Source of the DNA: Amphiscolops sp. MND2022
Taxonomy: Eukaryota
Direction: 5' to 3'
Assembly (NCBI GenBank): GCA_964187785.1
Contig: OZ076411.1
Coordinates: 87,730,001 to 87,794,000, forward strand
DNA length: 64,000 nucleotides
Positions 21,713 to 23,123 of the stretch are shown piece by piece. Both the position numbers and the translations under genes were made by a program. Position 1 is the stretch's first letter; each line of letters begins with the position of its first letter. Below the pieces are notes generated by a model that saw only the letters and a list, made by a program, of their open reading frames with translations, searched no databases and was not told the origin of the DNA.

Positions 21713-22099
21713 TTAGCTTTCTTTTTGCAAGCTGAGGATTTCTTCCACCTTTGTTTTGTAGAATTCTTCAAAGGAGCCAAGTCCAGACTCCATAAAACAG
21801 GACAGTTCGTCCAAAAGGGGCAGGTCGAATATTCGTATTTCTGATACTGGGTTATAGAGGTGGAGTGAAATGGCAATGGCTAGTTCGGCGAAGAATTTAG
21901 TTAAGACTTTCGTTAATGGGTCTAGTAGTCTATACCCTTTGACTGTTAGCCAGAATTGATGTTGATACGACCACTGTAATTCTTTACCTATTAGTATTTC
22001 AGGGCTTTCAATGGGGTCGATTAGGTTATAAATTGATACAGGTAGGTAGAGTGAAACTGTCTCGATTTCGTCCTCTTCCCAGAGGTTGTGAATATACAT
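21713..22099 (-). CDS. Accessory ORF-e, 128 aa, unknown
   Basis: ATG directly after the TAG of ORF-d; co-oriented. Confidence 0.6.
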   Translation of the reverse strand: MYIHNLWEEDEIETVSLYLPVSIYNLIDPIESPEILIGKELQWSYQHQFWLTVKGYRLLDPLTKVLTKFFAELAIAISLHLYNPVSEIRIFDLPLLDELSCFMESGLGSFEEFYKTKVEEILSLQKES

Positions 22100-22222
22100 C
22101 TATTGTCTTTTTCGAATTGAATTTTGAGAAAGTTGATTTCTAGGCACTTGAGGGTGTAGTTGTGGAAGAATGTTTCTAATCCAAATTTGTCTGACGATTT
22201 CCTCTCGTAAATTGAAGCTCAT
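22100..22222 (-). CDS. Accessory ORF-d, 40 aa (MSFNLREEIVRQIWIRN...)
   Basis: Below ORF-track cutoff; fills the gap between ORF-c and ORF-e; TAGATG junction. Confidence 0.45.
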   Translation of the reverse strand: MSFNLREEIVRQIWIRNILPQLHPQVPRNQLSQNSIRKRQ

Positions 22223-22232
22223 TTGATTTTCT

Positions 22233-22553
22233 TTATACTGCTGTTGTGTCGGCTAACTCTCCAAGGATATGGAGTTGAAATTGGGTGATGTGTGATTCTG
22301 GTTCTTCAGCGTAATTATCCAAAGCTTCAGATAGTTGTTCTCGGAGAAATCTGTTTCTAGCGATTTCTAAGGTGGAGACTTTGCTTTTATTATTTACAGG
22401 GTGTATTGTTATTAAAATGAAACTGGGTTTAGTAAAGGACCACTTGAGGTTGGTGATATTGAAGTATTCAGTGATGCCTGCTGGAGTAGTTATTTTAAAC
22501 GGACAGTTGAAATTGACTTCTTCAATACATTCGTTATTAAGGTGAAAGTTCAT
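22233..22553 (-). CDS. Accessory ORF-c, 106 aa, paralogue of ORF-b
   Basis: IEEVNFNCPFKITTPAG / IDEVEFNCPWKITTPSG and EQLSEAL / VQLSKAL shared. Confidence 0.75.
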   Translation of the reverse strand: MNFHLNNECIEEVNFNCPFKITTPAGITEYFNITNLKWSFTKPSFILITIHPVNNKSKVSTLEIARNRFLREQLSEALDNYAEEPESHITQFQLHILGELADTTAV

Positions 22554-22555
22554 AT

Positions 22556-22907
22556 TTAGCTGCTTTTGTCAGTGTTTTCTGGGTACTTCAATGGGGTTAT
22601 TGTATCAGTTAGTTCCCCAAGAACGTGGAGATGATACTGTTTAACGTTGTTCAGGATTCCGAAGGTATTCGTTTAGTGCTTTAGAAAGTTGGACTTCAAG
22701 AAAACTATCTTCTGCGACTTCAAAGGTAGTTACTTTATTTTTGTCGCTAGTACGGTGTATTGTCACGGAGATGAAACAAGGTGATATTTGTGACCACCTA
22801 AGTTTGGTAATTATAAAATTTCCAGAGTTGCCTGAAGGAGTTGTTATCTTCCAAGGGCAGTTGAATTCTACTTCATCAATTTCGCCCTCATCAAAAATTA
22901 TGTCCAT
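22556..22907 (-). pseudogene. Accessory ORF-b, frameshifted near 22645
   Basis: After the track stop, shifted frame reads VKQYHLHVLGELTDT matching ORF-c ITQFQLHILGELADT. Confidence 0.75.
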
Positions 22908-23123
22908 TTAAATACTATTGTCAGCATTCAGGAATGCATCTGAGGGTACGTTTCCAAAGAAGAGGAAAATGTGGTGAAAGTAGTCCCAATATATAGACGT
23001 TGGGGGAACAGTGATGACTTTCTTCTGTTTTGTTTGGTGGTGTTGGAGGGAAACGTAAAAGGTTAGATTTCGGAAATCTTGTTTGACTACTCTGTAAAAA
23101 TCGTTGTTTATCTTGATGTACAT
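22908..23123 (-). CDS. Accessory ORF-a, 71 aa, unknown
   Basis: ATG start; TAA abuts ORF-b ATG (TAAATG). Confidence 0.55.
   Translation of the reverse strand: MYIKINNDFYRVVKQDFRNLTFYVSLQHHQTKQKKVITVPPTSIYWDYFHHIFLFFGNVPSDAFLNADNSI

Follow-up and report, generated by a model that had tools for sequence, protein, structure and literature searches.

Small accessory genes packed between pol and env of a Ty3/gypsy-type retroelement of Amphiscolops sp., three of them encoding paralogues of an unclassified protein

Five short open reading frames (ORFs) follow one another almost without a gap on the minus strand of a 64,000-nucleotide (nt) stretch of Amphiscolops sp. MND2022 (Eukaryota; GenBank assembly GCA_964187785.1, contig OZ076411.1, positions 87,730,001 to 87,794,000; hereafter the window), and the question raised by this locus is what kind of unit is packed in such a way, which of its frames are genes and how they might all be translated. 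The cassette is the accessory region of a multi-copy, env-bearing long terminal repeat (LTR) retroelement of the Ty3/gypsy type, and not a host gene. The element measures 18.7 kb and lies on the minus strand, bounded by two LTRs that are 98.9% identical across 2061 nt and have TG...CA ends, and flanked by a 4-bp target duplication, ATAG. Its assignment to the Ty3/gypsy type is based on domain order and Pfam families: pol matches rve (E 9e-14), RT_RNaseH_2 (E 8.5e-26) and RVT_1 (E 4e-6), with a protease match below the cut-off (Pfam, E 0.0013), and PF24664 is matched in both pieces of env (E 1e-10 and 2.8e-23), which has an in-frame stop near 20250. The cassette is placed between pol and env, in an interval of 3.9 kb that it shares with an array of RNA structures (Table 1). 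A first-pass annotation of the bare sequence had taken the packing to be that of a viral polycistronic RNA rather than of host genes, and this part of it is supported by the context, since the cassette lies within an env-bearing LTR retroelement.

Table 1. The retroelement and its parts, with positions in the window
Feature	Positions	Strand	Remarks
5' LTR	31519..33576	-	TG start, CA end, followed by a primer-binding-site-like TGG tract
gag	30062..31339	-	PF03732 Retrotrans_gag, E 1.2e-5, above cut-off
pol	24562..30116	-	order protease, weak Macro-like region, reverse transcriptase (RT), ribonuclease H (RNase H), integrase
spacer	23124..24561	-	1.4 kb, non-coding; stops in all six frames
ORF-a	22908..23123	-	71 amino acids (aa); basic (isoelectric point, pI, 9); unrelated to ORF-b, ORF-c and ORF-e
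ORF-b, paralogue 1	22556..22907	-	open for 88 codons to 22641, frameshift near 22645
ORF-c, paralogue 2	22233..22553	-	106 aa, intact
ORF-d, doubtful gene	22100..22222	-	40 aa
ORF-e, paralogue 3	21713..22099	-	128 aa; divergent, acidic, extra C-terminal segment
RNA-structure array	20897..21632	-	five degenerate units of 92-151 nt, up to three helices per unit
env-like fusion glycoprotein	18481..20616	-	PF24664 Monjiviricetes_fusion, chuvirus-like
post-env ORFs	17004..18454	-	ORFs of 98 aa and 86 aa, then a TRAF/MATH-domain ORF with a frameshift
3' LTR	14886..16946	-	pair of the 5' LTR

The five ORFs and their stop-start junctions are present as that annotation described them, with gaps of 0, 2, 10 and 0 nt. 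The TAA of ORF-a abuts the ATG of ORF-b at 22907; ORF-b continues in another frame, its tail being assigned to it by relatives (tblastn shows both frames), and a TAA ends it at 22556, ahead of the ATG of ORF-c. ORF-d follows after the 10-nt gap, and its TAG abuts the ATG of ORF-e. In all, 1399 of the 1411 nt are filled by the five frames. The unrepaired window holds a chain of three ORFs (at least 40 aa each, gaps of at most 10 nt), a length reached by none of 3000 dinucleotide shuffles; a chain of two was reached by 66 of the 3000.

Whether these frames are genes can be judged from their relatives. Protein searches retained 19 of 19 candidates for ORF-c, 32 of 40 for ORF-e and 24 of 28 for a joint a+b query, a read-through with X at the stop, whose matches comprise 21 of b-type and three from the ORF-c list; every match to these three queries either carries a single common source tag or comes from the window itself, and no named protein occurs among them. 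ORF-b is represented by 21 clusters with 117 member sequences (mostly 100-117 aa), ORF-c by 19 clusters with 145 members and ORF-e by 32 clusters with 159, and in nearly all clusters the same methionine starts b, c and e, the ends being conserved too. Six identical longest-contig sizes recur between the b, c and e match lists, so that co-occurrence is suggested. The paralogy of ORF-b and ORF-c noted in the first pass stands (42 of 88 residues identical, E 9e-29; 48% identity, dN 0.40, dS 1.38, dN/dS 0.29, bootstrap pN/pS 0.35-0.70). What was missed there is that ORF-e is a third, distant paralogue, a relationship that pairwise BLASTP did not detect (E 2.6) and that emerged from profile-profile comparison with the c family (hhalign E 8e-5, probability 61%). 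The joint alignment of b, c and e is nearly gap-free, and ORF-e is internally six codons shorter than its relatives.

The same matches bear on the alternative that one or two longer genes have decayed here, the in-frame TAA/ATG and TAG/ATG being nonsense mutations of a dead element. The a/b and d/e pairs are indeed in frame, and the element has further nonsense and frameshift lesions. An a+b fusion is, however, covered by none of the 24 matches, and because no match spans more than 55% of the a+b query the in-frame fusion is not the usual state. In the search with ORF-e (matches of 70-224 aa) an extension into the d region occurs in one of 32 clusters, and there out of frame, and the start methionine common to b, c and e also speaks against decay. 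We consider the decayed-gene reading very improbable, and it is largely refuted already.

ORF-a falls below the length needed for searches and was seen instead in frameshifted relatives. Read one base off, these give third- versus second-position changes of 46.5:16.5, from three informative relatives (a fourth aligned over only 3 residues), and the codon-usage score of ORF-a, computed as throughout without stop codons, was bettered by one of 2318 non-coding windows. Both values support ORF-a as a real gene under purifying selection. For ORF-d the corresponding changes are 13:11, which is a near 1:1 comparison (the off-frame control, on ORF-e relatives, is small and noisy), its codon score was equalled by 821 of 2411 non-coding windows, and its frame is open across 29 codons in one relative, P0092. 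Of the five ORFs first announced, four genes (a, b, c and e) are supported by these comparisons, whereas ORF-d is without coding support and probably serves as a spacer or as a short ORF with a regulatory role.

The description of the b/c/e protein draws on homology, selection and structure prediction. AlphaFold2 modelled ORF-c from 44 sequences with a predicted local distance difference test score (pLDDT) of 88.2 and a predicted template modelling score (pTM) of 0.79, all five models exceeding 83, and a model from a shallower alignment reached 80.0. The predicted fold has strands at residues 10-22, 28-39, 46-52 and 60-63, then two helices. Trp38 is nearly invariant in the family. Cys17, His51, Glu86, His88 and Glu99 are conserved in b, in c and in most of the distant members, but Cys17 and His88 are missing from ORF-e. 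Hydropathy over 19 residues does not exceed 1.3 in a, c, d and e, its maxima being 0.75, 0.55, 0.11 and 1.28, respectively, and a value of 1.6 is reached by three of 44 family members. ORF-c (pI 5.3) and ORF-e (pI 4.5) are acidic and have no Arg-rich motifs. Within the reach of such modelling, these data show a small soluble protein of a beta-sheet and two helices, specific to this element group.

Libraries of known families and folds did not place this protein. Pfam returned nothing better than E 0.12 for the five ORFs, PHROGs gave two weak matches among eight proteins and none for ORF-a, and a profile search of the PDB gave best E values of 0.066 and 0.082, for short helical matches. VIA-align of two models against 48,161 chains found none at a Z of at least 5; the best fold, at Z 4.0-4.1 and a root-mean-square deviation of 2.8-3.0 across 60 residues, lies under the usual background of that search. 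The best E values of Foldseek were 0.029 and 0.021 in BFVD and 0.086 in the PDB, and the ESM Atlas held no usable match to ORF-a. Two candidates were discarded: DUF7272 matched the alignments weakly (6 of 29 members, best E 0.0035; 3 of 44) and was taken as chance, and unnamed phage clusters in the ESM Atlas (0.91-0.93, recognition 2012, fewer than 170 shared features) were too weak a match to ORF-c. The lack of a fold match would neither make the modelled fold new nor rule out membership of a described family. With three paralogues, 46 representatives, purifying selection and a confident predicted fold without a library match, the annotation's suggestion of a new accessory protein family is upheld.

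These representatives come from a profile of 29 b/c/e sequences run against 1.84 billion proteins, which gave 47 at 50% identity, 46 of them family members or fragments. The other, P0114, an 845-aa repeat protein (E 3.7e-4), was judged unrelated and left out of alignments and tree. When the 47 were compared with the Gag of the present element, a similar Gag N-terminus was found fused clearly to two members (E 2e-18 and 6e-14) and weakly to two more (E 0.003 and 0.025), the run-through members being P0081 and P0098 and, weaker, P0083 and P0100. A tree built from 41 selected rows places all four in a single supported clade with 14 members (98/96); in this tree b and c form a separate group (100/98), e is long-branched and the backbone is unresolved. 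Ten members of the pre-gag group end 8-12 residues beyond the conserved C-terminal motif, and in two run-through proteins Gag starts 15-16 residues past it. Related elements would carry the family gene a few codons upstream of gag, which for the members without run-through we infer. The element studied here has no pre-gag family copy, and no further family copy was found in the window.

The cassette would have grown by tandem duplication, the latest of which copied the gene along with the junction and the last part of ORF-a. The 18 nt ahead of the ORF-a stop and the 18 nt ahead of the stop of the ORF-b tail match at 12 positions (anchored, P 5e-4), which argues that the b/c duplication copied the junction too; an unanchored alignment of the two regions is borderline (92 of 2000 shuffles). 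Since the b/c junction is a duplicate of a/b, it is not independent evidence for a junction design, and the a/b and b/c junctions now differ (0 versus 2 nt). Recombination between b and c may shrink the cassette again, judging from chimeras, as a b-like beginning is found in 21 of 145 c-type members, and from P0065 and P0074, where b continues directly into the ORF-d region. The C-termini of b-type members fall into three main types (74, 22 and 18 members), with three other. The first-pass annotation had looked to conservation of the junctions among copies, and this did not hold, since exact spacing differs in relatives at a/b and at d/e: b is in a different frame relative to a in P0071 and P0074 than in the window, and P0030, P0045, P0065 and P0092 have extra bases between d and e, as judged from frameshifted or run-through protein translations of partly degenerate copies. 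Zero-gap junctions are therefore not a family constant.

Because the cassette lies 3' of pol, a subgenomic RNA is needed, and we favour the reading that a, b, c and e are translated from one such mRNA, probably spliced. Leaky scanning would be the most likely mechanism, helped by reinitiation over the short gaps, and weak starts together with few, weak and very short internal AUG frames would spread ribosomes across the four genes. By the vertebrate/plant Kozak rule the start contexts of a, d and e are weak, those of b and c moderate and none strong. Non-start AUGs in the cassette number 6 versus 16.5 expected (P 0.003), a depletion without comparable counterpart in gag, pol or env. All five out-of-frame AUGs stand in weak context, versus 53 of 153 in gag-pol-env (P 0.005), and the frames they open run for 2-9 codons. 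A pyrimidine-rich acceptor-like site lies at 23169, the next AUG being the ORF-a start, and may be used as splice acceptor.

The first-pass annotation had proposed termination-reinitiation at the junctions, which is weakly supported: stops and starts are closely spaced, but there are no overlaps and UGGGA precedes one of the four junctions. In the form known from caliciviruses and influenza B, ribosomes finishing an upstream ORF stay tethered by a termination upstream ribosomal binding site (TURBS) and translate the next, and this requires that successive ORFs overlap by 1-14 nt and that a UGGGA core (motif 1) lies 40-90 nt upstream (PMC5972666). Caliciviruses, influenza B and the SART1 retrotransposon share with the cassette a stop close to a start, here 0-10 nt apart (PMC5972666). 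The UGGGA, 81 nt before the end of ORF-a, is within the range given, a GGGA stands at -62 before b/c, and in 22 b-type members the stop would overlap the ORF-d AUG, as P0065 and the shared C-terminus suggest; in relatives the family gene would end 3-8 codons before the gag start, and variants free of motif 1 are described from pneumoviruses, victoriviruses, hypoviruses and SART1 (PMC5972666). Unlike the TURBS systems, however, this copy has gaps and no overlap at any junction, with the motif at one only, which is near chance (about 6%, P 0.06) and doubles as a Trp-Asp codon pair. Moreover, spacing varies among relatives, the 95-nt windows upstream fold weakly (-6 to -14 kcal/mol, single-sequence), and AUG depletion would not be needed. 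The d/e junction is weak evidence because ORF-d does not look like a gene. With no overlaps, a core before one junction only and unconserved spacing, reinitiation of the calicivirus type is poorly supported, and we regard it as unlikely.

It is also conceivable that each gene has a separate spliced or internally initiated mRNA, the packing being a by-product of duplication and deletion in a size-limited element. The inherited packing, with b/c copied from a/b, and the drift of spacing among copies would fit this, and Tor elements obtain their env mRNA via splicing or an internal promoter (PMC4402516). Against it, none of the 16 best acceptor-like sites (of 376 in all) lies within the cassette, purine-rich or coding sequence precedes the starts of b, c and e, and the scarcity of AUGs and the weak contexts are left unexplained. 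Separate mRNAs thus appear improbable, and leaky scanning of one mRNA is retained as the preferred reading.

As for what the proteins do, we propose that they are accessory factors without enzymatic activity that bind proteins inside the host cell and would counter host restriction of the element or control how it is expressed. The lack of transmembrane segments, the acidity of c and e and the expansion of paralogues beside a TRAF/MATH cargo, which is of host-signalling type, suggest host-interaction factors. This is the weakest step of the account, put forward tentatively and with more doubt than confidence. Alternatively, the family could act on the element's own RNA or translation, in the manner of Rev/Rec or of the transactivator (TAV) of cauliflower mosaic virus (CaMV), by binding the adjoining array or promoting reinitiation in trans. 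The array shows covariation, the gene directly precedes gag in related elements, SH3-like/Tudor/KOW barrels are among the weak fold neighbours (Z up to 4.0), and a hypovirus upstream protein seems involved in reinitiation (PMC5972666). However, c and e are acidic and free of Arg-rich motifs, Pfam gave no match to CaMV P6/TAV, the fold scores are at background, and the array is found nowhere else in the window. We give little credence to this alternative.

The array itself lies between ORF-e and env. Each unit has a TATAAA(T/G)A-like box, and in a three-helix model 98% of cells are paired, with compensatory changes in 6 of 24 pairs; the compensatory score was equalled by none of 500 shuffles and stands far above slid controls, although the covariation comes from five related units only and the structure model was derived from the same units. 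The region folds better than each of 20 shuffled versions (z -3.3) and has 1 AUG in 1093 nt versus 9.4 expected. Neither the element nor the array has an Rfam match that exceeds the gathering score. Possible roles of the array are those of an env leader, a packaging signal, a response element or, as known from Tor elements (PMC4402516), an internal promoter.

Taken as a whole, the account favoured here, of an accessory cassette with a history of duplication, a leaky-scanned subgenomic mRNA and accessory-factor functions, is in our judgement evenly poised between right and wrong. Several points weigh against it. A stop and frameshifts in pol and a stop in env, besides the break in ORF-b, mean that this copy is decayed, and the relatives behind the ORF-a selection test are non-independent. 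When all AUGs are counted the depletion becomes borderline (11 versus 16.5, P 0.057); the AUG and context tests were picked post hoc, and the Kozak rule used may not hold in the host. The start of e, the last cistron, is weak too, which departs from the pattern in rice tungro bacilliform virus (RTBV), and with five out-of-frame AUGs remaining the upstream ORFs are not AUG-free. The acceptor at 23169 ranks 7 of 376 YAG sites in a crude score. As to function, no structural or sequence homologue in Pfam, PHROGs, the PDB or BFVD gives a hint, and the conserved Cys17, His51, Glu86, His88 and Glu99 would also suit a metal or catalytic site.

The scanning part of the account has its nearest parallel in RTBV and the badnaviruses (PMC5902531), which are likewise reverse-transcribing and have small ORFs in succession, separated by short gaps, with less than optimal starts and few AUGs inside them. 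They differ in that internal AUGs are absent from RTBV over 900 nt and the RTBV ORFs stand at the 5' end of the genomic RNA, whereas the present cassette has five weak out-of-frame AUGs and lies 3' of pol; some of these viruses do tolerate short internal upstream ORFs in poor context (PMC5902531). The cassette may thus work like RTBV/badnavirus scanning without being a strict member of that group.

Other small genes of LTR elements were compared by description. In Drosophila, sORF1 and sORF2 of the MDG1 group (about 110 and 70 aa) are under selection and stand before gag, like the pre-gag members of the present family (bioRxiv 10.1101/2025.03.14.642691). There sORF1, a soluble nuclear protein, is predicted to be helix-turn-helix, and sORF2 is a transmembrane fusogen (bioRxiv 10.1101/2025.03.14.642691), whereas the family here is beta-rich, has no transmembrane segment and accompanies a true env. 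A single transmembrane helix with polybasic tail, the hallmark of sORF2-like and FAST-like fusogens, was not found in a, c, d or e.

Elements of the Ty3/gypsy type with an env, of the gB type, are widespread (Chary and Hayashi, PMC13524379). The 'ancient errantiviruses' of that study agree with the present element in the arrangement LTR-gag-pol-env, in the order protease, RT, RNase H, integrase, in a PF24664-related env, in multi-copy occurrence and in an animal-like genome; they differ from it in that the element here has 18.7 kb and a 3.9-kb pol-env interval with cassette and array. The env type and the repeat content suggest that the genome around the present element is an AT-rich animal one. 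For non-insect genomes the first prefilter of that study admitted 1000 nt from pol to env and a total length of 10 kb, later steps extending 3-5 kb downstream in some phyla, and the words 'accessory', 'macro' and 'TRAF' are absent from its main text. Extra ORFs after pol and env or between them are known from Burro/GYPSM1, the bdelloid ORF3 types and Ogre (PMC6431247, PMC5408684), and the planarian Burro shares with this element a MATH/TRAF cargo and a mononegavirus-like env (PMC6431247). The extras of Burro, the bdelloid elements and Ogre are single known enzymes or polyprotein domains, while the present element carries a series of small genes, three of them paralogues from an unclassified family, with variation in copy number. 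No account of the b/c/e family or of such a cassette was found in the open-access literature. The element itself is of a known kind; what sets it apart as a variant are the triplicated, position-mobile and unclassified family, the putative design as a scanning lane and the RNA array.

The remaining parts of the element may be recorded briefly. The start codon of env has a strong context. The TRAF/MATH ORF (17004-17643, minus strand; PF21355, E 4.5e-20) is frameshifted in this copy, and codon use is coding-like in the 98-aa ORF (18158-18454) but not in the 86-aa ORF (17724-17984). Between protease and RT, the Macro-like region (28470-29200, minus strand; PF01661, E 0.0055) is below cut-off and split by a stop at about 29034. 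Within the spacer, positions 23300-23530 (minus strand) repeat a pyrimidine-tract/AG motif whose acceptor-like sites rank 4, 5 and 9 of 376. The LTRs contain tandem arrays of 44/88 bp (15761-16181 and 32404-32814) and a two-copy 88-bp repeat near the LTR edge, and at 37987-39514 part of another LTR of this family lies in inverted orientation, sharing 75-88% identity with those of the element. A tRNA gene search returned none. Elsewhere in the window, a second gypsy-like element (3643-9780, minus strand) has direct repeats of 210 bp (99.5%) and an unbroken gag-pol frame of 1774 aa, and a 2.3-kb tandem duplication (99.2%) lies within a decayed gag-pol element at 47512-52132 (plus strand). Two paralogous cysteine-rich ORFs (10689-11009 and 12716-13063, minus strand; 71% identical in DNA across 300 nt) possibly encode small secreted host proteins; each begins like a signal peptide and contains two internal repeats. 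Minisatellites of 20, 21 and 14 bp occur at 40727-41037, 42751-42933 and 43529-43744, the 21-bp one falling in an open frame and giving a seven-residue repeat.

A bolder combination may be considered, which we think a long shot when its parts are taken together. The lineage of animal LTR elements to which this one belongs would have evolved the expression of a complex virus, with a 2.5-kb AUG-poor lane on one subgenomic RNA along which weak starts spread ribosomes across four accessory genes and then across the array to the strong env start; the array would belong to an undescribed family (a shunt, an internal entry site or a response element), and the protein would have a fold without solved relative; and the triplicated protein would move between pre-gag and pre-env positions, expand and contract as a gene accordion, and act on either the array or some factor of the host's defence.

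That LTR elements can carry extra ORFs is already known, which tempers the interest of the present finding. Env-bearing gypsy elements are nevertheless usually pictured as three-gene parasites, and the cassette departs from that picture. Through it, the possible translation of long ORFs from a polycistronic RNA can be put to the test in an animal LTR element, and structural and interaction studies gain a new protein family; the array may be as interesting as the cassette. The size of the element and of its pol-env interval suggests further that the most complex elements can escape surveys that prefilter by size and gap.

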